Source: an uncultured Acidobacteriota bacterium (GTDB taxonomy: Bacteria > Acidobacteriota > Thermoanaerobaculia > UBA5066 > Gp7-AA6). From it: a DNA stretch of 64,000 bases. Each line of letters starts with the position of its first letter. Position 1 is the stretch's first letter. The translations under genes were made by a program, and so were the position numbers. Of the stretch, positions 1-53,790 are shown in pieces. The notes below the pieces were generated by a model that searched no databases, was not told the origin of the DNA, and worked only from the letters and a program-made list of their open reading frames with translations. The DNA is taken from the NCBI GenBank assembly GCA_963837495.1, contig CAWINF010000003.1, positions 398,784-462,783 on the forward strand, read 5' to 3'.

Positions 1-864
1 GTGGACCACGAACCTCGGATCGGCCGTCCAGGCGAAGTCGTGGACGTTCTCGGCGACGTAGCGGTAGGTCGCGACGTTCCCCTTTTTCGACTCGGAGACG
101 CGCTTTCCCGTCGCGCCCACGACGAAGGAGGCCGGCACGGAAAGCGTCACGTCGTAGCGCCCGAAGTCGGCGTAGAACTCGGAGTTGGCGTGGAAGGAGT
201 GGCAATTCCAGCCTCCCATCGCTCGTCCCCGCATCCCGGCCGGCTCGTAGACGCCGGTCTTGGGGAACCACTGGCCGGCGAGATGGAAGTCGCGCACGTA
301 GCCCGTGCGCGCGAAGACCCTGGGCAACTTCGACCGGAAGGAGATCGAAAGCCTGACCTCCCCGTGCGGCGCAACCGGCGTGGCAAGCGGCACCGAGAGG
401 ACTGTCTCGTCGGTCCCCGGGCCGGGGAAGGGATAGCCGTCGGGTTGGAGGAACCTCGCCGAAGGCTTGAGGTCCTCTCCCGCCTCCGTCTTCATCGAGA
501 CGACGTCGATCCATCCCCAGTCCTCCGGTTTCGTGCCTGCCTTGTCGCCGCGAAGCCGGCCGCCCGACTCCCGCGCGAAGATCGAACGGTTGTTCTTGAA
601 GGCGTTCAAATACAGATGGAATCTCAGCTCCGAGACGGCATCGCCGGAGGGATTTCTCCAGATCAGGCTCTCGCGGCCCTGGATCTCGTGCGTCCTGGGA
701 TCGAGATTCGCTTCGAGGGTGTACTCCACAACCGGAGGCGAGACCGGCGTCGCGGCAAGGAGCGAAGGGGCGGACGGGCATGTGGCCAGGACCGCCGCCA
801 CGAGCCAGGCTGCCTTCTTCGAACCTGCCGATCCTCCCGCGCCGGGAAAACGAGATTTCTTCAA
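1..864 (-). CDS. Secreted lipoprotein, possibly the N-terminal beta-domain of an M1-family-like metallopeptidase. The C-terminal end of the gene lies beyond the window start.
   Basis: Reverse-strand translation shows strong GC3 bias and runs uninterrupted to position 1. The N-terminus is MKKSRFPGAGGSAGSKKAAWLVAAVLATC, a signal peptide with lipobox LATC. The segment FHANSEFYADFGRYDVTLSVPASF resembles the M1 aminopeptidase N-domain. The plus-strand ORF 1..966 is its antisense artefact. Start is taken as TTG at 864. Confidence 0.5.
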   Translation of the reverse strand, partial: MKKSRFPGAGGSAGSKKAAWLVAAVLATCPSAPSLLAATPVSPPVVEYTLEANLDPRTHEIQGRESLIWRNPSGDAVSELRFHLYLNAFKNNRSIFARESGGRLRGDKAGTKPEDWGWIDVVSMKTEAGEDLKPSARFLQPDGYPFPGPGTDETVLSVPLATPVAPHGEVRLSISFRSKLPRVFARTGYVRDFHLAGQWFPKTGVYEPAGMRGRAMGGWNCHSFHANSEFYADFGRYDVTLSVPASFVVGATGKRVSESKKGNVATYRYVAENVHDFAWTADPRFVVH

Positions 865-941
865 TGTTTCCAGATTCTCATTCAACGCAGAAGCCGCCGA
901 AGAGTTTCATCCTCGAACCGCCGAGTCAATACAATCCCGCC

Positions 942-1928
942 GTGTCCCGCCGCATCGCGTTCCTGACCGGAGGCACCGGTTTCGTCGGTGGCCACGTTCT
1001 CCGAGCGCTCTGCGCGCAAGGATGGGCGGTGCGCGCGCTCGTACGAACGATGCCGGACTTTCCGCCGGATCTTCCCGTCGAGACCGTGGCCGGGAACCTC
1101 TCGGAGGGGTCCGGTGAGATTCTCCGAGAAGCCCTGCGGGGCTGCGAAGCGATCGTGCACGTGGCGGGGCTGGTCAAGGCGCGCTCGCTCGAGGATTACC
1201 GGGAGGTCAACGTCGCCGGGACGCGGCGCCTCGTCGCCGCGGGAACGGACTCGGCGCGCGAAGCGCTGTTTCTGCTCGTCTCCAGTCAGGCCGCCGCCGG
1301 ACCGGTCCGCGACGGCCGGCCGGTCCGGGAAGACGATGCTCCGCGGCCCGTCTCCTGGTACGGCCTTTCCAAGCTCGAGGCGGAAGAGGAGGTCGCGCGC
1401 GGATGGCGGGGACCCTGGTTCGTCCTGCGGCCAGGAGTCATCTTTGGACCGCGAGATCGCGGTCTCCTGAGGCTCTTCGCGGCGGCTTCCCGAGGCTGGG
1501 TTCCCACGCCCGCGGCAAGGCGCAGGATCCAGATCATCCATTCTTCCCGCGCCGCCGCCGGCATCGCCCGGGCAGCCGCGCGTCCCGACCTGTCCGGCAA
1601 GAGGGGTTTTCTCTGCGACTCGGAACCAATCCGGGTCCGCGACCTCGCGGCGGCGATCGCTCGATTACCGGAGCGCCATGCCCGTCTCGTGCCGGTCCCC
1701 GATCTTCTGGTTCGACTTGCCGGAGCTGTCGAAACGCTCCGGGAGGCCGTCACCGGGCGTTCTCGCCCATTCAACGCGGACAAGGCGCGGGAGATCCTGG
1801 CCGGCGATTGGCTTTGCGAACCGGCTTTGATGCAGAAACATCTTGATCTGCCTCCTCCGTCTCCTCTGGAGGACACCCTGGCCGAGACGTGGAATTGGTA
1901 CAGACGACACCGGTGGCTCTCTTTGTAA
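942..1928 (+). CDS. NAD(P)-dependent epimerase/dehydratase family (SDR); candidate ceramide reductase CerR.
   Basis: N-terminal Rossmann motif (M)SRRIAFLTGGTGFVGGHV and a downstream YxxxK-type SDR region. The listed ORF starts at 780; the likely real start is GTG 942 (alternative ATG 864). It lies immediately upstream of an Spt homolog. Confidence 0.8.
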   Translation: MSRRIAFLTGGTGFVGGHVLRALCAQGWAVRALVRTMPDFPPDLPVETVAGNLSEGSGEILREALRGCEAIVHVAGLVKARSLEDYREVNVAGTRRLVAAGTDSAREALFLLVSSQAAAGPVRDGRPVREDDAPRPVSWYGLSKLEAEEEVARGWRGPWFVLRPGVIFGPRDRGLLRLFAAASRGWVPTPAARRRIQIIHSSRAAAGIARAAARPDLSGKRGFLCDSEPIRVRDLAAAIARLPERHARLVPVPDLLVRLAGAVETLREAVTGRSRPFNADKAREILAGDWLCEPALMQKHLDLPPPSPLEDTLAETWNWYRRHRWLSL

Positions 1929-1980
1929 AATTTGCTAAGATCCCGGGTCCAGGGCTCGACGCTAACTGCTGGGAGGACTG

Positions 1981-3219
1981 ATGAGCAAACCTGCTCCGGC
2001 GGCAAGACTCTTGGACGAAAGTCCAGTCCCTTTCTTCGACAAGTGTTACCGGTACGACGTGGCGGAACGGGTTCGCCAGGCGGGGGTTTATTCCTTCTTC
2101 CGGGTCATCGAGTCGGCCCAGGACCCCGAGGTCTCGATCGGAGGCCGCCGGCTCATCATGCTCGGGTCCAACAACTACCTCGGGCTGACCAACCATCCCC
2201 GGGTCAAGGAGGCAGCCATCGAAGCGATCCGCCGCTATGGCTCCGGGTGCGCGGGATCCCGCTTCCTGAACGGCACTCTCGACCTTCACGTGCTTCTGGA
2301 GGAGCGGCTCGCGGAGTTCACGCGCCAGGAGGCCGCGATCACGTTCGCGACCGGATTCCAGGTCAATCTGGGGGCGATCTCCTGCCTGGTCGGTAAGGGG
2401 GACACGGTCTATCTCGACAAGCAGGATCACGCCTGCATCATCGACGGGGCGCGCCTCTCCTTCGGCGAAGTCCGCAAGTTCCGCCACAACGATCCCGCCG
2501 ACCTGGGGCGTCAGATGCGGCAGGACGGCGCCAGGGGCCGCTTCATCGTGGTGGACGGGGTCTTCTCGATGGAGGGGGACATCGCGCCCCTTCCGGAGAT
2601 CCTGGCCGCGGCCCGCGCATCCGCCGCCGGAGTCATGGTGGACGATGCCCACGGCATCGGCGTGCTCGGACCGACCGGCCGCGGCACCTGCGAGCATTTC
2701 GGCGTGGAGGAGGAAGTGGACCTGATCATGGGCACCTTCTCCAAGTCTCTGGCTTCCGTGGGAGGGTTCATCTCCGGGGACGCCACCATCATCGACTACA
2801 TCAAGCACAAGGCCCGCACCATGATCTTCTCCGCCGCTCCTCCTCCCGCGTCCGTGGCCGCCGCGCTGGCGACCCTGGACATCATCGAGGAGGAGCCCGA
2901 ACGCCGCGCGCAGCTCTGGCAGAACACGCTCTTCTTCCGGGAAGGGTTGAAATCCCTCGGGCTGGACACCGGCAACTCGCAGACCCCCGTCGTTCCGATC
3001 GTCGTGGGAGAGGATGCCCTCGCGCTGGAGATGGTGCAGCGCCTCCACAAAGCCGGAGTCTTCGTCAACTGCGTCCTGTCGCCGGCCACGCCGCCCGGAC
3101 GCGCGCTCATCCGCACGTCGCTCATGGCCACGCACACCCGCGGGCAGCTCGCGCGCGCGCTCGAAGCGATCGAGAACGTCGGGCGGCAGGTCGGTCTCGT
3201 GCGGACCGTCGAGGTGTGA
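1981..3219 (+). CDS. spt: Serine palmitoyltransferase-like alpha-oxoamine synthase (PLP-dependent).
   Basis: Motifs FFRVIESAQD, GSNNYLGLT, GSGCAGSRFLNGTLD and the PLP-lysine motif GTFSKSLAS, plus a LIRTSLMATHT tail. These are recalled from Sphingomonas Spt; the similarity appears closer to Spt than to BioF/Kbl. Confidence 0.8.
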   Translation: MSKPAPAARLLDESPVPFFDKCYRYDVAERVRQAGVYSFFRVIESAQDPEVSIGGRRLIMLGSNNYLGLTNHPRVKEAAIEAIRRYGSGCAGSRFLNGTLDLHVLLEERLAEFTRQEAAITFATGFQVNLGAISCLVGKGDTVYLDKQDHACIIDGARLSFGEVRKFRHNDPADLGRQMRQDGARGRFIVVDGVFSMEGDIAPLPEILAAARASAAGVMVDDAHGIGVLGPTGRGTCEHFGVEEEVDLIMGTFSKSLASVGGFISGDATIIDYIKHKARTMIFSAAPPPASVAAALATLDIIEEEPERRAQLWQNTLFFREGLKSLGLDTGNSQTPVVPIVVGEDALALEMVQRLHKAGVFVNCVLSPATPPGRALIRTSLMATHTRGQLARALEAIENVGRQVGLVRTVEV

Positions 3220-3234
3220 GGGTCTCCTCCGCCG

Positions 3235-4390
3235 GATGACCTCGATCGAGCCGCTTTCACGGTCGAAGCGGGACCTCTCACGTTTCTTCGACGTCGCGGA
3301 TGGGATCTACCGGGGCGATCCCAACTGGGTTCCACCCTTGCGCGACGACCTCGCGAAGGCGTTCTCGGAGAAGAACCCGTTCTTCCGCCATGCGGAGATG
3401 CAGCTTTTCGTGGCGCGCCGCGGCGGGCAAGACGCGGGCAGGATCGCCGCGATCCTGGACCGCCACCACAACGACTTTCACGGGGAGAAGACGGGCTTCT
3501 TCGGGTTCTTCGAATCGCAGAACGACCGGAGCGTGTCGGACTCCCTCCTCGACGCCGCGGCCGGCTGGGCGCGCCATCGCGGCATGGAGACCCTGCGCGG
3601 ACCCGCGAACCCGAGCCTGAACGACGAGGCCGGCCTGCTCGTGGAGGGATTCGACAAGCCGCCCGTCCTGATGATGACCTACAACCCGCGATACTACGTT
3701 GACCTGATCGAGGCGGCGGGGTTTCGAAAAGCGAAGGACCTCCTCGCCTACTGGTTCGAGATCGGGCCGGAGCCGCTCGCGCGCTTCGCCCGAATCAACG
3801 AACGCTTCCGCAAGCGCGCGGCCGACATCGAAGTCCGCAAAGTCTCCAAGCGGAGCCTGATGGCGGATCTCCCGAAAATCCGGGAGGTCTACAACGACGC
3901 CTGGGAGAAGAACTGGGGCTTCGTGCCGATGACCTCAGAGGAGATGGATTTCATGGCCGCCCGGTTGAAGCCGCTCCTCGACGAGAACTTCCTCTTCCTC
4001 GGCGAGACAAGAAGATCCGACGGATCTCTCGAGCCGATCGCCTTCATGCTCTCCCTGCCCGACTACAACGCCGCCATCCAGCCGCTCGGCGGAAGGCTTC
4101 TGCCTTTCGGCTGGCTGAAGTTCCTCCTGGGACTGAAGAGGATCAAGACACTCCGCGTGGTCACGCTCGGCTTGAAGAAGGACTTCCGCATGCGCGGCAT
4201 CCAGTCCCTCATGTTCGAAGAAGGCCTCAGGGCCGCGCTCAAGCGCGGCCTCACCGGCTGCGAGGTCTCCTGGATGCTCGAGGACAACGACCTCGTGCTG
4301 CGGTCCGTCCGCCTGTGGGGCGGGAAACACTACAAGACCTACCGCATGTACGACCGGCCTCTCGAATCACTCCGCGTGAATCGGTCGTAG
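3235..4390 (+). CDS. GNAT-fold N-acyltransferase (~385 aa); candidate bacterial ceramide synthase (bCerS).
   Basis: ATG at 3235 lies 15 nt after the spt stop. The protein has an acyltransferase-like core (YNDAWEKNWGFVPMTSEEMDF...). Assignment rests on synteny with spt and the SDR gene. Confidence 0.65.
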
Positions 4391-5223
4391 AGGCGGTCTC
4401 CCAGGGGGACCGTCACCACGGCGAGGAGCGCGCCCGCGATCACGTCCACGACGTAGTGGTACCGGCAATAGACCGTCGAGAGGACGAGGCAGACCGCAAT
4501 GGGGAGCAGCCACCAGAAGGCGTCGCGCGCGCGCTGAAAGGCCGCGAGGAGTACCACCACGGCGATCATCGTGTGCCCGGAGGGGAAGACGTCGAACTTC
4601 GTTTTCTCCAGCTCATCGAGCGTCGAAGAGATGGCGAGGGAGACGCCGGTCGTCGTGAGCGGCACCGCGTGTCGGGAGGCCAGGGCAACGCGCGGGCCGA
4701 GAGCAGGCAACGCGAAGTATCCGGCGTAGGAAACGACATACGCCAGGGTGAGCGTGAAAATGAAGCGGCGCGCCGCGGGGCGGCTTCTCCTCCAGAGGAC
4801 GACGCCCAGCGCGATCGCGATGAAGTAGTAGGTCAGGTAAGCGACGAAGAAGAAGTCCGTCAAGACGGGACTCACGAAACGCTGAAGCTCGATCGTCGGG
4901 TCCGCGTGGAAGAGCCAGCGGTCCGCCGCGATCAAGAGGTCGTCCCGCGCGCGGGGGCGCGCCGCGGCAATCAGGGGTCCGAGGTTCTCGTAGAGGATGG
5001 GCACGAACGCGATCGGGTAGAAGTTGACGAGCACGCGAAGCGCCGGAGGGAGCCGATCCTCCCTCCGAGCGGCGGCCATCACGATCAGGACGCCCGCCGC
5101 CATGAGGGCGTAGCGCGTCAGGATTCCGGCCGGGTCGGCGACGCGGCCGTCCAGCCACAGCGCGAGCCCGGAAAGGAGGGCCAGAGTCAACAGATTCAGT
5201 GCTTCGAGGGGGCGCGGCTTCAC
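4339..5223 (-). CDS. PAP2-superfamily membrane phosphatase/transferase.
   Basis: Multiple TM segments; PAP2 motifs KxxxxxxRP-like, PSGHT and YCRYHYVVDV. Convergent with the GNAT gene, with a 52-nt 3' overlap. Confidence 0.8.
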   Translation of the reverse strand: MKPRPLEALNLLTLALLSGLALWLDGRVADPAGILTRYALMAAGVLIVMAAARREDRLPPALRVLVNFYPIAFVPILYENLGPLIAAARPRARDDLLIAADRWLFHADPTIELQRFVSPVLTDFFFVAYLTYYFIAIALGVVLWRRSRPAARRFIFTLTLAYVVSYAGYFALPALGPRVALASRHAVPLTTTGVSLAISSTLDELEKTKFDVFPSGHTMIAVVVLLAAFQRARDAFWWLLPIAVCLVLSTVYCRYHYVVDVIAGALLAVVTVPLGDRLYDRFTRSDSRGRSYMR

Positions 5224-5294: not shown

Positions 5295-6617
5295 ATGAAG
5301 GCAGCGAAAGCGTCTCTCTTTCTTCCGGCGCTCGCGGGCTGCCTTCTTCTTGCCGGCGCCGCGACGGGGGCGGCGAGCGCCGCTCGCGCCCCCCTCGTCG
5401 TCCTTGGCCGCATCGATACCCCGATCCACCCCGCCGCCGCCAACTACCTGAACAAGCTGATCAAGGGCGCGGAGAAGAACGGCGCCGAGCTCGTCGTGGT
5501 GGGCATCTCGACGCCCGGCGGGCTCCTGACCTCGACCCGCGAGATGGTCTCGGCGATTCTTCTCTCCAGCGTCCCGGTCGCGACGTTCGTGTCGCCGTCC
5601 GGCGCTTCCGCCGCCTCGGCGGGTTTCTTCCTGCTGGAGTCGGGGGACGTCGCGGCGATGGCTCCCGGGACGAACTCGGGGGCCGCGCACCCGGTGGCCG
5701 GAGAAGGCCAGGACCTGCCCAAGACCTTGAACGAGAAGGCGGAGCAGGATGCGCGGGCCTTCATCCGGAGTCTCGCGCGTCAGCGGGGGAGAAACGCCGA
5801 TGCGGCCGAGTCCGCGGTCACGTCCAGCAAGTCCTTCACGGAAACGGAGGCGAAGGGGTCGAACCTCATCGAGGTCGTCGCCCGCGACGTGCCGGACCTG
5901 TTGAACCAGCTCGACGGGCGGACGATCCAGCGCGTCGGCGAGAAGCAAACGACCCTTCACTTGAAGGGCTACCGTCTCGAGACCCGGGAGATGAGCGGGC
6001 TCGAGAAGGTCCTGGGCGTCGTCTCCCACCCCAACGTCGCCTACATTCTCTTCCTGCTCGGGCTCGTGGGCCTCTACTTCGAGATGTCGAGCCCCGGCGC
6101 GGTGCTGCCGGGCGTCGTGGGCGGAATCTCGCTGCTTCTGGCGCTCTACGCGTTCTCGGTTCTTCCCGTCAACCTCGCCGGGCTGGCCCTGATCCTCTTC
6201 GCCGTGCTGCTCTTCATCGCCGAGGTCAAGGCGGCGAGCCACGGCGTTCTGGCCGTCGGCGGGGCGATCGCGCTGGTGGCGGGATCCCTCCTGCTCTTCT
6301 CGGGACGCGGGGACCAGGGCTACCAAGTGGACCTCTCCATCATCCTGCCGGGCGTCGCGTTGACGCTGGCCGTCGTGGGATTCCTGACGTTTCGGACGAT
6401 CTCGCTGCGGCGAATGCCCGTGAGGACAGGGGTGTCCGGCCTGCTCGGGAAGAACGCGCGGGTGGTGCGGTCCGCCGCCGAGCCGGACTCCCCGGGCACG
6501 GTGCTCCTCGAAGGAGAATACTGGGACGCCTATGGAGCCCCCGGCGCCGCCCCGGGCGATACGGTCCGCGTGGTCGGCATGGAAGGGTTGAAACTTCGAG
6601 TTGAACGGAGGACGTGA
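5295..6617 (+). CDS. NfeD-family membrane-bound serine protease (ClpP-like N-domain plus C-terminal OB domain).
   Basis: Signal peptide, ClpP-like region GISTPGG, TM block and a C-terminal beta-barrel tail. Its stop overlaps the start of the SPFH gene (ATGA). Confidence 0.85.
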
Positions 6618-7375
6618 TGCCGCAGGCTCTTCCCGGTTTCGTCTTTGCCGCCCTGGTCCTGCTCCTCTTCCTTTTCAAGTGGATCAACATCCTGAAGGAG
6701 TATGAGCGCGCCGTGACGTTCTGGCTCGGGCGGCTTTCGAAGCAGCCCAAGGGACCGGGTCTCGTCTTGATCTTCTGGCCGGTCGAGACGATGGTCCGGA
6801 TGTCCCTTCGCACGATCGTCCACGACGTGCCGTCGCAGGACATCATCACGAAGGACAACGTCTCGGTGAAGGTGAACGCGGTCGTCTATTTCCGCGTGGT
6901 CCAGCCGGACAAAGCGGTGGTCCAGGTGGAGAACTATCTCTACGCCACCTCGCAGCTCGCCCAGACGACCCTTCGCAGCGTGCTCGGCCAGGCCACGCTG
7001 GACGAGCTTCTGTCGGAGCGGGACAAGCTGAACCTCTCCCTCCAGCAGGTCATCGACGAGCACACGGAACCCTGGGGCATCAAGGTTTCGCTCGTCGAAG
7101 TCAAGCAGGTGGATCTGCCCCCGGAGATGCAGCGCGCGATGGCCAGGCAGGCGGAGGCAGAGCGCGAGAAGCGGGCCAAGATCATCCACGCCGAAGGAGA
7201 GGCCCAGGCGGCCGAGAAGCTCTCCGAGGCGGCCGCGATCATCGGCCGCGAACCGGCCACTCTGCAGCTGCGGTACCTCCAGACGCTCACGGAGCTAGCG
7301 AGCGAGAAGAACTCGACCATCGTCTTCCCGCTGCCGATCGACCTGTTGAAGGCCTTCCTGCCGAAGGACAAGTAG
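6614..7375 (+). CDS. SPFH/band-7 (stomatin-like) protein.
   Basis: N-terminal TM, then a canonical band-7 core ([33 protein letters not shown], coiled-coil [11 protein letters not shown]). Classic nfeD-stomatin operon. Confidence 0.9.
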
Positions 7376-7992: not shown

Positions 7993-8885
7993 GCACGCTC
8001 CCCATCCGCGCCCCGGAATGGATCCGCGAAAAGCGCCTGCGCCTGGCCGACCTCCACGAGGTCAAGCGCGTGATGCGCGCCGGCTATCTCCACACGGTCT
8101 GCGAGGAGGCGCGATGCCCCAACCGTGGAGAGTGTTTCGTCCGCGGGACCGCGACGTTCCTCCTGCTCGGCGACATCTGCACGAGGGCCTGCGGCTTCTG
8201 CGACATCGCCACGGGACGGCCCCGCCCCGTGGACCCGCTGGAGCCGGCCAGGGTGGCGGCGGCGGCGAGCCGGATGAGCCTGAAGTTCGTCGTCGTGACG
8301 TCGGTGGACCGCGACGACCTGCCTGACGGAGGCGCCGCCCACTTCGCCGGGACGATCCGGGCGCTGCGCGACCTCTCGCCGGTTCCCGGAATCGAGGTGC
8401 TCACGCCCGATTTCCGCGGCCGGCTCGATTCCGTGCGGACCGTCGTCGAAGCGGGGCCCGACGTCTTCAACCACAACGTCGAGACCGTTCCGCGTCTCTA
8501 TTCCCGGGCGCGCCGCGGCTCGAAGCTCGAACGCTCGCTCGCGGTCCTCGCCGAAGCGAAAAGGCTCGACCCGCGGATGACGACGAAGTCGGGCTTGATG
8601 GTGGGTCTGGGAGAGACGGAGCAGGAAGTGCTCGATCTGCTCGGCGGCCTCCGAGCGTCCCAGGTGGAGATCGTCACGATCGGCCAGTACCTGCGCCCCT
8701 CGCGCCAGAACCTGCCCGTCGAGGAGTACGTCGCCCCGGAGATGTTCGACCGCTACCGCGAAGCGGGGGAGAGGATGGGCTTCCGCCATGTCTTCTCCGG
8801 TCCCTTCGTGCGCTCCTCCTATCGCGCCGAAGAAGCCCTCGCCGCCGCCTCTTCTCCCTCTCCCTCCGGGAGAGGGTCGGGGTGA
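7968..8885 (+). CDS. lipA: Lipoyl synthase.
   Basis: Radical-SAM and auxiliary cluster motifs CEEARCPNRGEC and CTRACGFC; aligns with E. coli LipA (RAPEWI..LHTVCEE). Confidence 0.9.
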   Translation: MDRSAGRIGTLPIRAPEWIREKRLRLADLHEVKRVMRAGYLHTVCEEARCPNRGECFVRGTATFLLLGDICTRACGFCDIATGRPRPVDPLEPARVAAAASRMSLKFVVVTSVDRDDLPDGGAAHFAGTIRALRDLSPVPGIEVLTPDFRGRLDSVRTVVEAGPDVFNHNVETVPRLYSRARRGSKLERSLAVLAEAKRLDPRMTTKSGLMVGLGETEQEVLDLLGGLRASQVEIVTIGQYLRPSRQNLPVEEYVAPEMFDRYREAGERMGFRHVFSGPFVRSSYRAEEALAAASSPSPSGRGSG

Positions 8886-10423
8886 GGGGCCAACCCAAGC
8901 CCACACCCTCCTCCTGGAGGACGCTGGCCGCCGGCGTCCTCTCGGGTCTCCTCTACGCCCTGGCCTTCCCGCCGCTCGAGTGGGTGCTCTTGCTGCCGCT
9001 GGCTCTCGTGCCCTGGATGCTCGCGCTCGCGGCGGAAGAAAGCCGTGCCCGCGCCCTCCTCTCCGGGTTCGTCTTCGGCCTCGCCTACTGGTGCGCTTCG
9101 ATCCCGTGGATCTTCTACGTCGTCACGCGTTACGGCGGCCAGTCCGAAGTCATGGGCGTCATCTGCGTGCTCATCCTGGCCGCGATTCTGGCCGAGTGGC
9201 CCGCGGTCGTGGCCTGGGGAGTCGTCTCCTGCGCGAGGGCGGGCTCGTGGAGGCGTTTCGCCGCCTTTCCGTTGCTCTGGATGGCGGCCGAGCACGCGAG
9301 GTCCTTCGTCTATGGAGGGTTCCCCTGGAATCTGACCGGGCACGCTCTCTATCGCCACCCGGTCTGGACGCAGTCCGCGTCCGTGTGGGGCGTTTACGGA
9401 GTCGGCCTCGCCGTCATGGCCACGACGGCCCTTCTGGCGGCATCGATCCGGAAGCGCAGCGCGCGCCCCATCCTGGCGGCCGCGGCCCTGGCGCTCGCCG
9501 CCGGAGGCTGGGGAGCGCTGCGGCTGGCCGCGAAGCCCGAGGGAGGCGCGCCTCTGCCGGTCGCTCTTCTCCAGCCGAACCTTTCGCAGGAGTCCCGCCT
9601 GGCCGCCGGCGGTGAAGCGAGCAACTATCTCGCCGTGATCGAGTCCGCGCGCGCGGCCGCGACTTCGAAGCCGTCGCTCATCGTGATCCCCGAGTCGGCA
9701 TTTCCAACCTACTGGCAGAGGAGCGAGCGGATGCGGCGGGACTTGACCGGGATCGCGCGGGAGAGCGGCGGAGCCGTTTTGTTCAACGACGTCCAGGAGG
9801 AGCCGGACGGGCGCTATTACAACGTGGCGCGCCTCTGCGGACCGGAGGGGCTTCTCGGAAATCCCTATCGCAAGGTCCACCTCGTCCCCTTCGGCGAGTA
9901 CGTTCCGCTGCCCAGGCTCTTCTTCTTCGTGCGGCAGATCTCGACGGAGATCGGGGCTTTCTCCGCGGCGTCGCGCCCGGCGACGATCGGATGGGGGCCG
10001 CTGTCGGTCGGCCTCGGGGTCTGCTATGAGGTTCTGTATCCTTCCCTCGCTCGGGCGGAGGTCGCGCAGGGAGCCAACCTTCTGGCGACGATCTCCAACG
10101 ACTCCTGGTACGGGCGGGCGGGCGCGCAGCCCCAGCACTTCGCGGGAGCCGTCCTGAGGGCGGTCGAGAACCGCCGGTATCTTCTGCGCGCGGCGATCAC
10201 GGGCATCTCGGGCATCGTGGACGAGAAGGGGCGCATCCTCCAGGAGCTGGGAGAGAACCGCTCCGGCATCCTGCGCGGAACCGCCCGGCTTCTCAAGTCT
10301 GAGACCGCCTGGACGCGATGGGGTTACTGGCTGCCCCGTCTGGGCGATGCCGCGGGGCTCGCCGTGCTACTCTTCGGCGCTGTCCGACTCCTCGGCTCTC
10401 GAAAGCCGAGGGGCGGCAGCTGA
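8882..10423 (+). CDS. lnt: Apolipoprotein N-acyltransferase.
   Basis: Multi-TM N-terminus plus a CN-hydrolase domain (IVIPESAF..., GVCYEVLYP, NDSWY). GTGA overlap with lipA. Confidence 0.9.
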   Translation: MRGQPKPTPSSWRTLAAGVLSGLLYALAFPPLEWVLLLPLALVPWMLALAAEESRARALLSGFVFGLAYWCASIPWIFYVVTRYGGQSEVMGVICVLILAAILAEWPAVVAWGVVSCARAGSWRRFAAFPLLWMAAEHARSFVYGGFPWNLTGHALYRHPVWTQSASVWGVYGVGLAVMATTALLAASIRKRSARPILAAAALALAAGGWGALRLAAKPEGGAPLPVALLQPNLSQESRLAAGGEASNYLAVIESARAAATSKPSLIVIPESAFPTYWQRSERMRRDLTGIARESGGAVLFNDVQEEPDGRYYNVARLCGPEGLLGNPYRKVHLVPFGEYVPLPRLFFFVRQISTEIGAFSAASRPATIGWGPLSVGLGVCYEVLYPSLARAEVAQGANLLATISNDSWYGRAGAQPQHFAGAVLRAVENRRYLLRAAITGISGIVDEKGRILQELGENRSGILRGTARLLKSETAWTRWGYWLPRLGDAAGLAVLLFGAVRLLGSRKPRGGS

Positions 10424-10432
10424 GATCATCCA

Positions 10433-11552
10433 ATGACCGAACGCGACGACCTGATCGCCCGCCTCAAAGCCGCCTCGGAGCGACTCCTCTCGCTCCGGGG
10501 CTATCTTTGATCAGGACGCCGCGCGGAGCGCGCTCGAGGGACTGAGGCGCAAGGCCGCCGCACCGGATTTCTGGTCCCGCCCGGAAGAAGCTCAGGAAGT
10601 CCTTCGACAGAGCCGCGCGCACGAGCGCAAGCTCGACACGGCCGGCAGCCTGGACGAGCTCCGCGACGAGCTCGACACCTTCGCCGAGCTGCTCAAAGAA
10701 GGGGAGCCCGCGGAGCCGGACGCCCGGGAGGCGTTGGGAAAAGCCTCGGCGTTCGCCGACGAGCTGGAGCTGTCGGTCAAGATGGGATCGCCCGAGGACC
10801 CCAAGAACGCCTGGCTCATGATCCACGCCGGCGCGGGCGGCACGGAATCGCAGGACTGGGCGGAGATGCTGCTGCGCATGTACCTGCGCTTCTGCGAGCA
10901 GCGCGGGTGGAAGGCCGAGCTGATCGACCGGCAGGACGGCGAGGAAGCGGGCTTGAAGAGCGCGACGCTCCACGTCGTCGGGGACCACGCTTATGGCTAC
11001 CTGAAGGGAGAGATGGGGGTCCATCGCCTGGTGCGCATCTCCCCCTTCGACGCGGCGCAGCGCCGCCACACCTCCTTCGCGTCGATCTACGTCTCGCCGG
11101 AGGTAGACGAGGACATCCAGATCGAGATCGCGGACAAGGACCTGCGCGTGGACACCTACCGCTCGAGCGGCGCCGGAGGCCAGCACGTCAACGTCACGGA
11201 CTCGGCCGTGCGCCTGACGCATCTGCCCACCGGAATCGTCGTGACGTGCCAGAACGAGCGCAGCCAGGGGCGCAACCGCGATCTGGCCATGAGGGTGCTG
11301 CGCGCTCGCCTCTACCAGCGGGCGCTGGACGAGCGACGGGCGGACGAAGAGAAGCTCGTGGGTGATAAGAAATCCATCGAGTGGGGAAGCCAGATCCGAT
11401 CGTACGTGCTCCACCCTTACCGGATGGTCAAGGACCACCGCACCGGGTACGAAACCGGCGACACCGACAAGGTCCTGGACGGCGGCCTGGCTCCCTTCAT
11501 CGAGGCCTACCTGAAGTCCCGGGCCGATTCCGGCCGCGCCGTCGGAGCCTAG
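10433..11552 (+). CDS. prfB: Peptide chain release factor 2, with a programmed +1 frameshift.
   Basis: Frame 0 reads MTERDDLIARLKAASERLLSLRGYL then TGA at 10508. Shifting +1 at CTT (10505-10507) continues as DQDAARSALEGLRRKAAAPDFWSRPEEAQ... through the GGQ-containing RF2 body (SPFDAAQRRHTSF, RSSGAGGQHVN). The site context CGGGGC-TAT-CTT-TGA is near-identical to E. coli. Confidence 0.9.
10495..10511 (+). promoter_or_regulatory. prfB autoregulatory +1 frameshift site (internal SD-like GGGG, then TAT CTT TGA).
   Basis: Sequence cGGGGc TAT CTT TGA t. The in-frame UGA is followed immediately by the RF2 reading frame in +1. Confidence 0.85.
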
Positions 11553-14723: not shown

Positions 14724-17700
14724 TCACGCGCCGGCGGCGCTGCCGGGACCGGCAAGCCTGCCCCGGGGATCCAGAAAGGAGTAGAGGGCGGGCAGCACGA
14801 GAAGAACGAGAGGGCCGGACAGGAGGAATCCTCCGATGACGGCGATCGCGAGCGGTTGCTGGAGCTGCGCGCCCTCGCCCAGCGCGAACGCCAGCGGGGC
14901 GAGAGCGAAGACACTCGCAAGGACCGTCATCGCGACGGGCCGCAGCCGCCGGCGAGCCGCGGCTCTCCACGCCTGCGCGGGAACGAGGCCCTCGCGCAGG
15001 GACTTCCGCGCCTCATGAATGACGAAGATGGCGTTCTCGCCGACGATTCCGACCATCATGATCGCGCCGACGAAGCTGGAGATGTTGAGCGTCATTCCCG
15101 TCAGCAGGAGGAGGCCGAAGACACCGGCCAGGACCGCCAGCGCGATAACACTCGTGACCAGCGGAGCCCTCCAATCCCCGAACTCGAAGAGAAGGACGAC
15201 GGAGACCAGGACGAGTCCCGCGATCAACACGAGCAGGAGTCCCTTGAACGAGGCCTGTTGCTGCTCGTAGATCCCTCCGAATCGGATCTCCATGCCCGGA
15301 GGCAGGTCGAGCCTCGTCTGGAGCGCGGTGCGGATCTCCGAGATGGCGCCTCCCAGGTCACGGCCGGAGAGGCGGGCGGTCACTCCGAGGAACGTCTTCA
15401 AATTCTCGCGGTCGATCTCCGCCTCGGGGGGACCGGTCGAGAGCGTGGCGATGGTCGAGAGCGGCACGAGCGCGCCCGAAGGAGTCCGGATCTTGAGCTG
15501 GTCCAGGCCCGCCGGAGCATTCTCGAAGACGCGAATGTCATAGACGCGTTCGCCGACACGGAGTGTTCCGGCGACGGTTCCCGTGACGGCCGGCTCCACG
15601 ACGGCATGAAGGTCTTCCGTCGTGAGCCCGAACCGCGACGCCTCTTCTCCCGCGGCGGAGCCAGACGTCGCGGCTTCGCGAAAGCGAGGCCGAACGTTCA
15701 GGGCGGGGCCGGCGATGACGACTCCATCGAAGACGTCCTCAACGCCTCGGACCGAGGAGATGATCCGGGCGGCTTCGCGCGCCTTGCGCTGGAGCAGCGC
15801 CTGGTCCTCTCCGAAGATCTTGATGTCGATGGGCTGAGGCGCGCCACCGGTCAGGTCTCCGATGTTGTCCTCGATGAGCTGCCCGAAGTCTGTGCGGAGG
15901 GCGGGCTCGACCGCCGCCAGCCGCGCGCGAAGGTCGTCGATGATGGCGCCGGCGGGGCGCCGGGCCTTACGAGGCTTCAACTTGATCACGTAGTCGCCGC
16001 GGTTGGGCTCCGTGATGAAGAAGCCGAGCTGGGTGCCGGTGCGGCGGGAGTAACTCTGGACGTCGGGAAGCGATCGGATGATCTTCTCGGCCTCGGAAAG
16101 GATCGTGTCCGTATCGGTTAACGAGGTTCCGGGCGGGGTCCAGTAGTCGAGGATGATCGAGCCCTCGTCCATGGAAGGGAGGAAGTCGCTTCCGATCATC
16201 CGGGAAAGGACATATCCGCCGGCCCACAGAAGGAGAGCGGCCGCGATCGGAAGAACCGGACGCCGAAGAAACAGACCGAGGGCGCGGTCGAGGCGCCGGC
16301 CCCGAGGAGGTCCCTGCCTCTTTGCCGGCGGGAGCGAGGAACCGGCCGCCAGCGGGACCGCGAACACCGCCAGGAAGAATGAAACGACGAGCGCCAGGGC
16401 CATCGTCAGCGCGAGAGGCTTGAAGAACGCGCCGGCGACGCCGGTCAGCAGCGCGAAAGGGACGAAGATGATGATCGTCGAGAGGCTCGATCCGACGAGC
16501 GCCGGCAGCAGGTCTGCCACGCCGCGCCCGGCCGGGTCGTCCGCGCGCTCCTCCCGTTTCCTGTGGATGTTCTCGACGACGACGATCGCGTCGTCGGCGA
16601 TGAGGCCAAGGGCGGCGGCGATCCCTCCGAGAGTCATGAGATTGATGGTCTGTCCCACCGCACCGAGCAGGAGCAACACGACCGCGACGCTCACGGGGAT
16701 GGCGGCGACGGCGATCAGGGTCAGCCGCAGGCTTCGAAGGAACAACAGCAGGACGATTGCGGCCAGAACGACGCCGATGAGGATCGCGTCGCGGGCGCCG
16801 CCGACCGAGCGGGAAACAAACGTCGCCTGGTCGTAGAAAGGCGTCCAGGTGACGTCGCGGGGAATGAGCCCCGGTTTCTCCTTGAAGATTGCCGCGACCC
16901 CCCGCGCGATGTCCACCGTGTTGGCCGCGGGCTGGCGGATCAGGTTGACGAGGACGGCCGGACGTCCGTCGGCCGTCGTCCGGATGTAGGAAACGGCGTC
17001 GCCCGCCGCAACCGTTCCGAGCTCCCCGACGTGCGCCGGGACACCGCCTCCCGGGACCGGCACCGGGATTTGCGCCACTGCGTCGGTTCCAGCGGCGCGT
17101 CCATCCACGAGCGCAAGGTAGAGCTCGTGGTTGGCCTCGGTCAGCCCCGCGGAGAGAATCTGGTTGTTCTTCCTGACCGCCGTGACGACGTCGGCGGAAG
17201 AGAGTCGCCGGCCGGCGAGCGCCTGCGAGTCCAGGCGAACCTGAAACTCGCGCTTGCGGCCTCCCTGGATCTGGACCTCGGAGACACCGGGAATGCGGAT
17301 GAGCTCGGGCTTCAGCACGAACTCGGCCAGGACAAGCAGCTCGGCCTGGCTGCGGGTCGGCGAGGAGAGCGCGTAGCCCAGGATCGGGAAGATCGCGGTG
17401 TTCATCCACTCGACGTCCATTCTCGCGCCGGCGGGAAGGTCCGGTCGGATCCGCTCGACTTCCGCCTGGACGCGCTGAAGGGCCGTCTGCATGTCGGTCC
17501 CCCAGGCAAAGTTGGCGGAGATCTCCGTTGATCCGCGGGATGTCGTCGAGAGGACCCGGAGGATTCCGGGCACGCGAAGAATCGCTTCCTCAAGCGGGCG
17601 CGTCACCGTCGGCATCATCCAGGCGGCCGGCTCTTCGCCGACGTCGGCGATCACTTTCACGAGCGGAAACGTGACCGAAGGGAAGATCGAGGACGGCAGG

Positions 17701-17792
17701 CGCAGGGCCGCGAAGACGCCTCCGGCGACGAGGATCGCGATCAGGAGGAAAACCGCGGCGGGGCGCTCGCGGGACAGGCGCAGGAGGCTCAC
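14724..17792 (-). CDS. RND-family efflux pump inner-membrane transporter (AcrB/CzcA superfamily, 1022 aa).
   Basis: 12-TM RND architecture with two large periplasmic loops and the conserved TM4 motif GLIADDAIVVVENI. Last gene of a tolC-MFP-RND operon. Confidence 0.9.
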   Translation of the reverse strand: MSLLRLSRERPAAVFLLIAILVAGGVFAALRLPSSIFPSVTFPLVKVIADVGEEPAAWMMPTVTRPLEEAILRVPGILRVLSTTSRGSTEISANFAWGTDMQTALQRVQAEVERIRPDLPAGARMDVEWMNTAIFPILGYALSSPTRSQAELLVLAEFVLKPELIRIPGVSEVQIQGGRKREFQVRLDSQALAGRRLSSADVVTAVRKNNQILSAGLTEANHELYLALVDGRAAGTDAVAQIPVPVPGGGVPAHVGELGTVAAGDAVSYIRTTADGRPAVLVNLIRQPAANTVDIARGVAAIFKEKPGLIPRDVTWTPFYDQATFVSRSVGGARDAILIGVVLAAIVLLLFLRSLRLTLIAVAAIPVSVAVVLLLLGAVGQTINLMTLGGIAAALGLIADDAIVVVENIHRKREERADDPAGRGVADLLPALVGSSLSTIIIFVPFALLTGVAGAFFKPLALTMALALVVSFFLAVFAVPLAAGSSLPPAKRQGPPRGRRLDRALGLFLRRPVLPIAAALLLWAGGYVLSRMIGSDFLPSMDEGSIILDYWTPPGTSLTDTDTILSEAEKIIRSLPDVQSYSRRTGTQLGFFITEPNRGDYVIKLKPRKARRPAGAIIDDLRARLAAVEPALRTDFGQLIEDNIGDLTGGAPQPIDIKIFGEDQALLQRKAREAARIISSVRGVEDVFDGVVIAGPALNVRPRFREAATSGSAAGEEASRFGLTTEDLHAVVEPAVTGTVAGTLRVGERVYDIRVFENAPAGLDQLKIRTPSGALVPLSTIATLSTGPPEAEIDRENLKTFLGVTARLSGRDLGGAISEIRTALQTRLDLPPGMEIRFGGIYEQQQASFKGLLLVLIAGLVLVSVVLLFEFGDWRAPLVTSVIALAVLAGVFGLLLLTGMTLNISSFVGAIMMVGIVGENAIFVIHEARKSLREGLVPAQAWRAAARRRLRPVAMTVLASVFALAPLAFALGEGAQLQQPLAIAVIGGFLLSGPLVLLVLPALYSFLDPRGRLAGPGSAAGA

Positions 17793-17796
17793 GCGG

Positions 17797-18774
17797 TCAC
17801 GGCTGCGCTGCGACGAGCTTGCCTTCGGGCAGTCCGACCAGGCCCGAGACGATCACCGCCTGGCCCGGCGCGAGGGGCGGCGAGACGATTTCCGTCCGTC
17901 CTCCCTCTACGACTCCCGTCCGCACGTCGACCCAATGGGCCCGGTTCTGCGTGACGAGCGCGACCCGGGCGACGCCGGTCACGTCGTCTCGGAGAACGGC
18001 CGCGTCGGGCACGACGGTTGTGTCGGGGTGCTCTCCCACGAGGACCCGCGCCGTGCCCACGATCCCCAGAGGCAGCCGGCGGGCCGGCTCGGGCAGATCG
18101 ACACGGACGGAAGCCGTGGAATCGGCGGGGTTCGCCGCGGGAAGCGCCGAGTGGACGGTTCCGGAGATCGCGCGCGTTTCTCCCGCGATCTGGATGGAAG
18201 CCTTCTGCCCGGGCCGGATCCGCGGAAGTTCGGACTGGGCGATGTCGGCCAGGAACACGGTGGACCCGGCGTCGTTGATCGTCAGGATTTCCTGATCTTC
18301 GGAGACGCGATCTCCGGCGCTTGCCGCATGGGACAGGACCATTCCGTCCGAGGACGCCGTCAGCGGCTTGCGGACCAGGTTCTTTTCGGCCAGCGCGACG
18401 GCCCGGCCGGCGTCGCGCCGCTCGGCTTCGCTGGCCGCCTGCCGCAGCATCTCCCGCGCCCCCGAGAGGGCGGCCTCGCTGTCGCGGGCAACGATCGTCC
18501 CGACCTTCTGCCCGCGGCGCACGCGGTCGCCGTCGAAGACGGAGAGCTCCGTCAGGGTTCCGGCGAACGGCGCCCGCAGCTTCTGCTGCGCCAGAGCGGC
18601 CGTCTTGCCCGGTCCCGAGACGAAGAGGGACAAGGACGCCTTCTCGGCCAGTGCGACCCGGACGGGCGTGGGGAGCGCGGGCGTGTTATCCGGGCGGGCC
18701 GCTTCACCCGGCGCGTCGCCCTTCCGGCATCCGACGACGGCGAGAAGCAGGAGCGCAACGGCTTCGCGCTTCAC
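17797..18774 (-). CDS. RND efflux periplasmic adaptor (membrane fusion protein), lipoprotein.
   Basis: Lipobox LLLAVVGC plus HlyD-like beta-barrel and lipoyl regions. 4-nt gap to the RND gene. Confidence 0.85.
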   Translation of the reverse strand: MKREAVALLLLAVVGCRKGDAPGEAARPDNTPALPTPVRVALAEKASLSLFVSGPGKTAALAQQKLRAPFAGTLTELSVFDGDRVRRGQKVGTIVARDSEAALSGAREMLRQAASEAERRDAGRAVALAEKNLVRKPLTASSDGMVLSHAASAGDRVSEDQEILTINDAGSTVFLADIAQSELPRIRPGQKASIQIAGETRAISGTVHSALPAANPADSTASVRVDLPEPARRLPLGIVGTARVLVGEHPDTTVVPDAAVLRDDVTGVARVALVTQNRAHWVDVRTGVVEGGRTEIVSPPLAPGQAVIVSGLVGLPEGKLVAAQP

Positions 18775-20114: not shown

Positions 20115-20126
20115 TCTAAGGAATGC
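20111..20126. promoter_or_regulatory. Perfect 16-bp palindrome GCATTCTAAGGAATGC spanning the tolC-like start codon.
   Basis: The ATG of the 18771..20114 gene lies inside the right arm of the palindrome. It is a candidate operator or start-codon-sequestering hairpin. Confidence 0.4.
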
Positions 20127-20193
20127 GGCCCATCGCGGCTCGAATCTCTTGCATCCGGAACGTTCCGTGGACGCGGGAACGCTCAGGCCCGCG

Positions 20194-20346
20194 TCAGTCC
20201 CCTTTCGAAGGCGCGCTCTTCAGACTCGCGTAGAGGGAGTCGTCGGCGATCCGAAGGCCGTGGGCGCGCAGCTGCTGGATCACCGGGTTGACTTCGTCGG
20301 CGACGAGGACGAAGTTCGCCGGTCGTCGCGACGCGCCTTCCGACAC
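20194..20346 (-). CDS. Possible small ORF (50 aa) between the chrB-like and tolC-like genes.
   Basis: GTG start; reads MSEGASRRPANFVLVADEVNPVIQQLRAHGLRIADDSLYASLKSAPSKGD. GC3 bias is consistent with coding. It is below the ORF-track length cut-off and has no recognisable domain. Confidence 0.3.
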   Translation of the reverse strand: MSEGASRRPANFVLVADEVNPVIQQLRAHGLRIADDSLYASLKSAPSKGD

Positions 20347-49512: not shown

Positions 49513-49897
49513 TTCGGCACGGGATTTGCGGGTGAAATTCTTCGTGCAACAGGCAGAATTCGACCTTTCGAAACTCGTGGGAAGCAAATCTCTGTCACGT
49601 TCCCTCCTCTCGGTTTGGCTTTGATCGCTAGCCCGATTCCGAGCTGGAACCGCCTTATGTCTTTTGAAGGAAGCGGCTTAGCGGCGTGGAGAAGATACTT
49701 GAAGCGATCGCGGCCAAATTGTGCCAGAATCGGGCACAAGGGTTGCTACTGAAGCACACTGGAAGAGCAATGACACAGGAAAGAAACAACGGCGGGTACC
49801 TCCCAGGGGGAGGTTTGCCTTTTCCAGCGTTTAGAGATCGGGTGTGGAAGAGTGCGGCGGAGTTCTTGGGCAGCAAACCTTGAAGGAGATCCCGAGG

Positions 49898-51282: not shown

Positions 51283-51330
51283 AGTCCAATGACTAATGTC
51301 CAACGACCAATGTCCAATAGACACGACTCA
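51283..51330 (+). promoter_or_regulatory. Direct ~15-bp repeats GTCCAA(T/C)GAC(T/C)AATG x2.5 upstream of the collagen-like gene.
   Basis: Reads gtccaatgactaatgtccaacgaccaatgtccaatagac in an AT-richer 780-bp intergenic region. Candidate transcription-factor binding array. Confidence 0.35.
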
Positions 51331-51475
51331 GACACGCTGCTCTAATAGTCGCCAACACAGTCGGGTCAGATTATGAAGCAAGAATACAGAATCGCCTTTC
51401 ACTGCATCAGAACGGCTCAGTCCACGAAACACAACTGCTCTTGTCGATAACAACCACAAGACAAAGGAGGCTAGA

Positions 51476-52660: not shown

Positions 52661-52686
52661 AGGCCTCGAGGGAAGTGAAGGTGTGA

Positions 52687-53766: not shown

Positions 53767-53790
53767 TCCGATTTGCGTGGATCGATTCCG

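Follow-up and report, generated by a model that had tools for sequence, protein, structure and literature searches.

Do the genes at positions 942–5223 of this DNA encode a route to ceramides, and does the membrane protein next to them supply a head group? The window, meaning the whole 64-kb stretch analyzed, carries four genes in this segment, coding for an extended SDR, an alpha-oxoamine synthase (AOS), a tandem-GNAT protein and a convergent PAP2_3 membrane protein. All four were found at the coordinates given in the sequence-only reading. The cerR-like SDR gene (942..1928, plus strand) codes for 328 aa from a GTG at 942, with an ATG at 864 as the other possible start. After 52 nt follows the spt-like gene for a PLP-dependent AOS (1981..3219, plus strand, 412 aa), the start of which is preceded by the ribosome-binding site GGGAGGA. 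A gap of 16 nt separates it from the bcerS-like gene for a tandem-GNAT N-acyltransferase (3236..4390, plus strand, 384 aa). The gene for the PAP2_3 (Aur1/SMS-like) polytopic membrane protein (4339..5223, minus strand, 294 aa) is convergent with the GNAT gene, and the two overlap by 52 nt at their 3' ends. Lying on the opposite strand, it does not share a transcript with the triad. GC3 values of 0.75–0.88 in the called frames support genuine coding regions. The strings FFRVIESAQD, GSGCAGSRFLNGTLD, GTFSKSLAS and LIRTSLMATHT, proposed earlier as serine palmitoyltransferase signatures, were all present in the 1981–3219 translation. Based on homology and synteny, the triad very probably represents bacterial ceramide-synthesis genes, and the whole locus is likely to be a three-enzyme (dihydro)ceramide route with a probable head-group enzyme.

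The sphingolipid locus of Sphingomonas wittichii RW1 served as the reference, and the link to the Caulobacter genes runs through its orthologs. In the published ortholog table, Caulobacter CC_1162, CC_1164 and CC_1154 (the genetically defined spt, cerR and cerS) correspond to Swit_3900, Swit_3897 and Swit_3908, with 40–45% identity between the proteins (45% and E 5e-109 for Swit_3908 versus CC_1154; PMC11324152 S2B). The RW1 gene order, anchored by ACP, DAGK_cat and LptF/G, fits this table. Pairwise BLASTP of the three window proteins with their RW1 counterparts gave E values from 2e-97 to 8e-29, and each of the three RW1 proteins had exactly one match within the 64-kb window.

The 384-aa GNAT protein had no match in Pfam and none in NCBIfam. 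Its AF2 model showed a tandem GNAT (acyl-CoA N-acyltransferase) fold with a mean pLDDT of 95.8, the fold of bacterial ceramide synthases (bCerS). BLASTP against Swit_3908 resulted in 36% identity over residues 4–376 of 384 (218 bits, E 2e-72), and a profile of the window GNAT family matched Swit_3908 with 378 bits (E 1e-116). Thus the protein is homologous over its full length to the S. wittichii ceramide synthase ortholog, in line with the bCerS assignment made beforehand. A lack of similarity to bCerS, which the sequence-only reading had named as a refuting result, was therefore not observed.

For the SDR, the Rossmann motif TGGTGFVGG was found at residues 8–16, together with a YxxxK motif (YGLSK). 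These are the GxxGxxG NAD(P)-binding motif and the catalytic motif of an extended SDR, and they align with GGTGFLGG and YGWSK of Swit_3897. Pfam matches were Epimerase (67.5 bits), 3Beta_HSD and NAD_binding_4. The proposed CerR identity was supported by a full-length BLASTP match to Swit_3897 (33% identity, 100 bits, E 8e-29) and by a family HMM, for which 37 SDRs linked to Spt in other phyla were used. This HMM scored the window SDR with 300 bits and Swit_3897 with 191 bits, versus at most 40 bits for unrelated SDR open reading frames. The sole exception, with 146 bits, belongs to a locus in which Spt and GNAT genes occur without an adjacent SDR. In NCBIfam, HpnA ranked first, followed by OleD/oxyalk_red and then SdmB, and the order was identical for Swit_3897. 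The HpnA score of 98.6 bits is far under the cutoff of that model (367) and about equal to the BLAST score with Swit_3897, and the top PDB match reached just 64 bits. Caulobacter CerR is reported to be a periplasmic, peripheral-membrane protein (PMC11087976). An N-terminal signal peptide was not evident in the window SDR, where the Rossmann motif begins at residue 8. Nor was one evident in Swit_3897, where this motif begins at residue 5, and the sequence is therefore not decisive for location.

Conservation of the arrangement was followed in 81 loci from other genomes of many phyla, 66 of which were flanked on both sides, with proximity defined as 6 kb. Spt was located within this distance of the GNAT gene in 50/81 loci, an SDR in 43/81 and a PAP2 gene in 26/81. 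In 40/81 loci, Spt lay directly upstream of the GNAT gene on the same strand, and Spt, GNAT and SDR occurred together in 39/66 loci having both flanks. Co-location of the four genes was far above that expected for unrelated genes, so the arrangement is not due to chance. The genomic tie of the GNAT family to spt also shows in Spt::GNAT fusion proteins (P0142, P0267 and P0197). One locus (L001) carries an SDR, an Spt::GNAT fusion and a PAP2_3 gene in this order on one strand. Homologs of the window genes in the order SDR-PAP2-GNAT-Spt were found in two Bryobacterales loci (L028 and L031). PAP2 and bCerS genes remain neighbors in several gene orders and strand arrangements, which come from at least six phyla.

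The membrane protein was examined for a role in the same pathway, which had been suggested on the basis of its fold. Its top Pfam match was PAP2_3, the Aur1 family (77.9 bits, cutoff 27), with an additional match to PAP2_C, the sphingomyelin-synthase C-terminal model. The domain carries the catalytic His of C2 (FPSGHT) and the His/Asp of C3 (STVYCRYHYVVD), and FPSGH and HYVVD are kept in cluster-linked PAP2 homologs of several phyla. C3 reads Ser-Thr as in Aur1, and a canonical K-x6-R-P C1 motif was not recognizable in the protein. Yeast Aur1 was the top structural match of the model in Foldseek, with an E value of only about 1e-3. The next-best matches were the bona fide phosphatases LpxE and PgpB. 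These structures and the marginal sequence similarity to Aur1 (15 bits) and to the BT_1522 model NF052609 (27 bits) count against a transferase. The same holds for the opposite strand here and for a PAP2 homolog within 6 kb in only 26/81 loci. On a different reading, the triad makes ceramide and the PAP2 protein would be an ordinary phosphatase of lipid phosphates. This could be of the PgpB/LpxE/UppP type, or act on ceramide-1-phosphate or sphingoid-base phosphates, and its adjacency may be lineage-specific. However, Aur1 aligned over 247 of 294 residues and the phosphatases over about 155–160, at the weak Foldseek E value given above. Together with the Pfam ranking, the lack of a recognizable C1 motif, the Aur1-like C3 motif and the adjacency to bCerS that persists across gene orders, strands and phyla, this speaks somewhat against a phosphatase, which we regard as a possible but less favored identity. 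From fold, motifs and conserved adjacency, the protein is a candidate ceramide phospho-head-group transferase, with about an even chance that this is its function. The earlier suggestion is thus strengthened by the survey and by the Aur1 match. The protein is not an ortholog of BT_1522, as its 27 bits miss the NF052609 (phosphoinositol dihydroceramide synthase) cutoff of 480.

The AOS family acts through a Schiff-base lysine, a PLP-stacking histidine and the Asp/His of a DxAH motif. The window synthase has the class I/II aminotransferase fold of PLP-dependent enzymes (Pfam Aminotran_1_2, 188 bits) and these catalytic residues. Its PLP lysine within GTFSKS, and its DHACIIDG and VDDAHG segments, line up with the matching residues of solved SPTs. 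The top NCBIfam model was NF047600 (Spt, CFB type) with 534 bits, which misses the equivalog cutoff of 640 bits, and the next non-Spt model was TIGR01825 (BioF/Kbl subfamily) with 421 bits. By sequence, the synthase is nearest to Spt models yet short of their curated equivalog range. Among PDB entries, Sphingobacterium multivorum SPT was the top match (429 bits), and lower scores were obtained for Kbl (272 bits) and cysteate-C-fatty acyltransferase (257 bits). In a neighbor-joining (NJ) tree of 56 sequences and 391 columns, with few outgroups, the synthase and S. multivorum SPT formed a clade in 100/100 bootstraps, with Kbl and BioF of E. coli and ThAOS of Thermus outside it. Support was 88/100 when the clade also took in S. 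wittichii SPT. BLASTP with Swit_3900 showed 41% identity over query residues 42–407. NCBIfam, PDB and the NJ tree concur and therefore support Spt identity, and the check proposed in the sequence-only reading, grouping with Spt and not with BioF/Kbl, came out in favor of Spt.

The enzyme is accordingly named a putative Spt, for which serine, alanine, glycine or cysteate are candidate amino-acid substrates. With a substrate other than serine, the cluster product would be a related N-acylated amino lipid and not canonical ceramide: alanine or glycine would lead to 1-deoxy-sphingolipid-type bases and cysteate to sulfonolipid-type bases. The score under the Spt equivalog cutoff (534 < 640) and the detectable relationship to cysteate-C-fatty acyltransferase are compatible with this. 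So is the report that environments with Spt-like genes of many phyla are rich in 1-deoxyceramides and sulfono-1-deoxyceramides (PMC11334938). However, the synthase is far closer to solved SPT than to the cysteate enzyme or Kbl and falls within the S. multivorum SPT clade in all bootstraps. Furthermore, a PAP2_3 transferase would require a C1 hydroxyl, which only serine supplies. We therefore consider use of a non-serine amino acid improbable. A further reading takes the genes as unrelated neighbors that encode an epimerase of sugar nucleotides, an enzyme of the BioF/Kbl type and an N-acetyltransferase. Public records suggest as much, since their generic labels for such proteins are epimerase/dehydratase, 8-amino-7-oxononanoate synthase and GNAT acetyltransferase or RimI-like acetyltransferase. 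This reading is highly implausible and effectively refuted by the Spt::GNAT fusions, the synteny kept across phyla, the specific matches to three Sphingomonas sphingolipid genes and a phylogeny that excludes Kbl and BioF.

In the favored ceramide route, Spt would form 3-ketosphinganine by condensation of L-serine and a long-chain acyl thioester, as expected from its family membership. Acyl-CoA is the probable donor, given the Sphingobacterium/CFB type of the enzyme and the lack of a dedicated ACP or acyl-ACP synthetase at the locus. As judged from the homologous genes of Caulobacter and Sphingomonas, the long-chain base would be N-acylated by the tandem-GNAT bCerS, and its 3-keto group would be reduced by the extended-SDR CerR, with NAD(P)H as reductant. 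Whether N-acylation or 3-keto reduction comes first is debated for Caulobacter. In the last and least certain step, the PAP2_3 protein may use a glycerophospholipid as donor and place its phospho-head group on ceramide. Products would be diacylglycerol and a phosphosphingolipid, namely ceramide phosphoethanolamine, phosphoglycerol or phosphoinositol.

We compared the locus with known systems. Caulobacter and S. wittichii share the three protein families with the window (41%, 33% and 36% identity to the RW1 proteins for Spt, CerR and bCerS), and the S. wittichii GNAT-type ceramide synthase likewise lacks a Pfam or NCBIfam model. In contrast to these organisms, a dedicated ACP (AcpR), an acyl-ACP synthetase (AasR), a ceramide kinase and LptF2/G2 were not found in the 64-kb window. 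An ACP/acyl-ACP synthetase pair is not expected for an Spt of the CFB/Sphingobacterium type. In alphaproteobacteria, cerS lies about eight genes away from spt, whereas the window has a compact cerR-spt-bcerS unit. Alignment showed that the window Spt also lacks the equivalent of Arg378 of the Sphingomonas enzymes. Its closest solved relative, from the same NJ clade, is S. multivorum SPT (PDB 3A2B, 8GUH), and both carry GTFSKSLAS, the GCAGSRFLNGTLD block and the C-terminal LIR.SLMATHT block. Unlike the ceramide genes of Bacteroidota, which are reported to be unclustered (PMC11334938), those of the window are adjacent. Yeast Aur1, an inositol phosphorylceramide synthase, and Bacteroides BT_1522, a phosphoinositol dihydroceramide synthase, are of the PAP2_3 type, as is the window protein. 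A Kei1 partner and inositol-lipid genes (MIPS, PIP synthase) are absent from the window, and thus the head group need not be inositol. Within the same phylum, ceramides were reported in Solibacter usitatus (Halamka et al. 2024, as cited in PMC12619533), which belongs to another class (Terriglobia/Bryobacterales versus Thermoanaerobaculia-like). The gene order of the Bryobacterales loci is unlike that of the window. Given this report, as far as the citing paper conveys it, and Spt-like genes in 38–40 phyla (PMC11334938), the earlier view that sphingolipid production would be unusual and notable here is dated. The locus is rather a good new example of an already known pathway that is now predicted in many phyla.

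The four genes of the locus were called from the ORF listing together with a GC3 analysis. On the plus strand, a gene for an extended SDR (942-1928, GTG start at 942 with an alternative ATG at 864) is followed by an alpha-oxoamine synthase (AOS) gene with an upstream GGGAGGA ribosome-binding site (1981-3219) and by the gene for a 384-aa GNAT protein (3236-4390). They are separated by 52 nt and 16 nt. A polytopic PAP2 protein of 294 aa is encoded on the minus strand (4339-5223). The 3' ends of the convergent GNAT and PAP2 genes share 52 nt (4339-4390); the alignments confine this overlap to the non-conserved C-terminal tails of both proteins. No terminator-like hairpin was seen between the two genes, and comparable 3' overlaps were found at three of the fetched loci (L004, L036 and L054). 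A secreted-protein gene (1-906, minus strand, continuing past the window start) is divergent from the SDR gene, and the intergenic stretch between them, 5' of the SDR, is AT-richer in a window with a GC of about 0.67. Its product has a hydrophobic signal-like N-terminal segment and gave no match in Pfam. The four genes were confirmed, and the four peptide strings quoted in the sequence-only reading were all found in the AOS translation.

In Pfam, the AOS was recognized by the generic Aminotran_1_2 domain only. The top NCBIfam equivalog was the CFB-type serine palmitoyltransferase (NF047600), with 534 bits and thus short of the cutoff of 640. The rival models scored 421 (BioF/Kbl subfamily), 394 (glycine C-acetyltransferase) and 392 bits (BioF). 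Against the PDB, the SPT of Sphingobacterium multivorum ranked first with 429 bits. Below it came ThAOS of Thermus (332 bits), the Sphingomonas SPTs (281-293), KBL (272), cysteate-C-fatty acyltransferase (257) and BioF (232). A neighbour-joining tree was calculated from the window AOS, 50 AOS genes adjoining GNAT homologs elsewhere and the references S. multivorum SPT, S. wittichii SPT, ThAOS, E. coli Kbl and E. coli BioF. With these few outgroups, a clade of the window AOS and the S. multivorum SPT, excluding Kbl, BioF and ThAOS, was recovered in 100/100 bootstraps, and the same clade enlarged by the S. wittichii SPT in 88/100. The PLP lysine (GTFSKS), the DHA..DG histidine and the DDAH motif line up with the solved enzymes. 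The equivalent of Arg378 in the Sphingomonas SPTs is absent from the window AOS, as it is from the S. multivorum enzyme. Judged by its sequence, the AOS is a member of the Spt family. The proposed Spt identity, with a grouping away from BioF and Kbl, was therefore upheld by the tree and by the top matches in NCBIfam and the PDB.

Searches of Pfam, NCBIfam and PDB sequences with the 384-aa protein returned no match; its homologs are sometimes labelled GNAT in public records. The comparison with Caulobacter cerS, cerR and spt was made through the Sphingomonas wittichii RW1 orthologs of a published table, which pairs CC_1162 (spt), CC_1164 (cerR) and CC_1154 (cerS) with Swit_3900, Swit_3897 and Swit_3908 (PMC11324152 S2B). 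Swit_3900 was retrieved via a PDB 2X8U sequence search, followed by its chromosomal neighbourhood (L082). Four independent anchors (ACP, DAGK_cat, LptF and LptG) show that the gene order there follows the locus-tag numbers. Swit_3908 has 382 aa and is likewise without a Pfam or NCBIfam match. The alignment of the window protein with Swit_3908 runs from end to end at 36% identity (218 bits, E 2e-72), and the profile of the window GNAT family detected Swit_3908 with 378 bits (E 1e-116). The 384-aa protein is thus classified as a bCerS-family tandem GNAT, in agreement with the similarity suggested before. The family comprises 7818 cluster representatives at E <= 1e-3. One relative, P0121 (784 aa), consists of two tandem bCerS-like halves.

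The window SDR matched Swit_3897 over its full length (33% identity, E 8e-29), and the top PDB SDR was a worse match with 64 bits. An HMM was built from 37 SDRs adjoining Spt/GNAT in other phyla, leaving out the close relatives of the window and S. wittichii. It scored the window SDR with 300 bits and Swit_3897 with 191 bits. Among the remaining SDR-like ORFs of the fetched loci (about 1.3 Mb), none exceeded 40 bits except for a 146-bit ORF at L047, a locus with Spt and GNAT and without an adjacent SDR. The full-length match and the HMM score bear out the reading of this epimerase-like SDR as CerR, and we assign it to the CerR family of reductases. The window SDR and Swit_3897 gave the same ranking of weak NCBIfam matches, with HpnA first, the OleD-type 2-alkyl-3-oxoalkanoate reductases second and the sterol enzyme SdmB third; these are families of reductases that act on 3-keto lipids. 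An identity as HpnA, the hopanoid-associated epimerase, was rejected: with 98.6 bits the SDR stays far below the model's cutoff of 367, its surroundings contain no hopanoid genes, and the CerR ortholog Swit_3897 gives the same weak HpnA match. Neither the window SDR nor Swit_3897 shows an N-terminal signal peptide in its sequence; CerR of Caulobacter is reported to be periplasmic (PMC11087976).

Linkage of these genes was analyzed in a scan of one genome per species, which gave 80 loci; together with the metagenomic contig L001, 81 loci were counted. The 80 loci belong to Acidobacteriota, Verrucomicrobiota, Gemmatimonadota, Zixibacteria, Eisenbacteria, Ignavibacteria/Chlorobiota, Bacteroidota, Planctomycetota, Chloroflexota, Nitrospirota, Desulfobacterota-type and other lineages. 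A Spt homolog lies within 6 kb of the GNAT gene at 50/81 loci, and at 40/81 it is located directly upstream on the same strand. For the CerR-type SDR, the count within 6 kb was 43/81. PAP2 homologs were found within 6 kb at 26/81 loci and within 300 bp at 20/81. Of the 66 loci with at least 1.5 kb of flank on each side, 39 had all three core genes together. Unsupervised clustering of the neighbour ORFs at the 81 loci yielded only these four as conserved families. Three members of the GNAT family, all from metagenomes, are natural fusions with an N-terminal AOS: P0142 (780 aa), P0267 (777 aa) and the fragment P0197. On the P0142 contig (L001, fusion gene at 8001-10343), SDR, Spt::GNAT and PAP2_3 genes are encoded on a single strand. 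The Spt::bCerS fusions are independent genomic support for a close coupling of the pathway's first two steps. They are consistent with, and no proof of, the acylate-then-reduce order proposed for Caulobacter. At L066 (10001-12267), on an Acidobacteriota chromosome, a bCerS-like gene adjoins the gene of a divergent AOS. This AOS shares only 35% identity with the window Spt and falls outside the Spt clade of the tree, between the SPTs and Kbl. Here, the same acyltransferase family may have an AOS with another substrate as its partner.

The five nearest loci, Thermoanaerobaculia/Acidobacteriota MAGs with a GNAT identity of 63-73%, have the complete window arrangement. This includes an NfeD (5295-6617) and SPFH/stomatin (6614-7375) pair after the PAP2 gene. 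The pair is noteworthy because SPFH proteins in other systems organise membrane microdomains. The NfeD/SPFH order was detected at 7/81 loci (L002-L004, L006, L007, L027 and L033). Since these are all Thermoanaerobaculia-type loci, the pair was rejected as a general pathway component, and its neighbourhood probably reflects lineage synteny. Further along the window, the release factor 2 gene (10433-11552) has a classical programmed +1 frameshift: translation starts at the ATG at 10433, an in-frame CTT TGA (10505-10510) follows a GGGG stretch, and the PCRF/RF-1 domains run on in the +1 frame to 11552. An RND efflux operon on the minus strand (14724-20219; outer-membrane factor, HlyD-type adaptor and AcrB-type pump) looks ordinary, as do the ChrB-like gene and the molybdopterin oxidoreductase with cytochrome c after it. 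The GC is 0.60-0.64 at 48000-58000, compared with about 0.68 elsewhere in the window, and several ORFs of this region had no Pfam match.

The PAP2 protein was recognized in Pfam by PAP2_3 (77.9 bits) as well as by PAP2 and PAP2_C. PAP2_3 is the family of Aur1, and PAP2_C corresponds to the C-terminal domain of sphingomyelin synthase. NCBIfam gave weak matches only, with phosphoinositol-dihydroceramide synthase on top (27 bits against a cutoff of 480). This model represents BT_1522, an Aur1 homolog genetically shown to make PI-dihydroceramide in Bacteroides (PMC9246714). Foldseek matched the protein to 9ivc and 9vj4 with TM scores of 0.52-0.63. The C2 motif FPSGH and the His/Asp of C3 (HYVVD) are kept in cluster-linked homologs from several phyla. 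In its C3 motif, the window protein has Ser-Thr like Aur1, whereas the phosphatase YodM has Ser-Arg. The position of the PAP2 gene shifts among loci, with adjacency kept. In the window it is convergent and downstream of the GNAT gene; the order is SDR-PAP2-GNAT-Spt in Bryobacterales, Spt-GNAT-SDR-PAP2 in Gemmatimonadota and Eisenbacteria, and PAP2-GNAT-Spt in Sulfotelmatobacter. Based on the motifs and on the adjacency kept in varied positions, a head-group transferase is favoured. A lipid phosphatase stays a serious rival, because the sequence is only marginally similar to Aur1 and phosphatases come next among the structural matches. We give even chances to the protein being a ceramide phospho-head-group transferase. 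The recurrent bCerS neighbourhood across phyla speaks for the earlier idea that the PAP2 enzyme is part of the same pathway; its function stays a candidate one.

PAP2_3 genes accompany Spt-bCerS-CerR in Acidobacteriota, Verrucomicrobiota, Gemmatimonadota, Eisenbacteria, Nitrospirota, Desulfobacterota-type and Latescibacterota genomes. We tentatively suggest, as a possibility slightly short of even, that they form a bacterial family of Aur1-like ceramide phosphotransferases that is widely distributed and so far uncharacterised. If true, PAP2_3 would be the missing head-group step of environmental bacterial phosphosphingolipids. Within Verrucomicrobia, the full gene set is found at L010 and L019. 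An Akkermansia muciniphila MAG (L012) and four further loci (L021, L009, L008 and L013) encode a bCerS-like GNAT protein with 49-54% identity to that of the window, and neither Spt nor CerR was found in their fetched flanks. At L012 (2224-4291) and L021, a convergent PAP2_3 gene is located directly beside the GNAT gene. Such a bCerS and PAP2_3 pair without a nearby Spt could mark the acylation and decoration of sphingoid bases salvaged from host or neighbouring cells.

The family membership of the four proteins, their conserved linkage and the gene fusions were observed; from the known properties of these families we infer the chemistry. Spt would convert serine and an acyl thioester to 3-ketosphinganine, bCerS would N-acylate the base, and CerR would reduce the 3-keto group. 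The order of acylation and reduction is disputed (PMC11087976). As a last step, the PAP2_3 protein may add a phospho-head group. The neighbour clustering of the 81 loci gave no conserved family for ACP, acyl-ACP synthetase, ceramide kinase or LptF2/G2. When about 40 ORFs spread over the window were scanned with Pfam, and the window was searched by tblastn with Swit_3899, 3902 and 3903, these genes were not found either. With neither an ACP nor an acyl-ACP synthetase in linkage, the acyl donor of Spt is probably acyl-CoA. In alpha-, beta- and gammaproteobacteria, by contrast, the two are linked (PMC9386255, PMC11324152).

Taken together, the locus is a predicted unit for ceramide synthesis, compact and well supported. 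It belongs to a Thermoanaerobaculia-like member of the Acidobacteriota, and no lipid reports on this lineage were found in the literature searched. The term "PAP2" is absent from PMC11334938 and PMC11324152, and an association of PAP2_3 with bCerS was not found described there. The recurrent PAP2_3 neighbour, with its candidate function, is the one element for which we found no description in the accessible literature. Beside bCerS across phyla, this Aur1-like protein is a concrete candidate for the attachment of phospho-head groups to bacterial ceramides. The triad itself corresponds to the published bacterial ceramide pathway, the genes of which are described as often clustered (PMC11334938). 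Among Black Sea MAGs, 38 phyla were reported to have Spt-like proteins, which brought the candidate phyla to 40 (PMC11334938). Therefore, sphingolipid capacity in an Acidobacteriota genome is not surprising, and the sequence-only reading is dated in calling it unusual. The locus is rather in line with recent work that describes sphingolipid synthesis as a widespread capacity of bacteria from environmental phyla.
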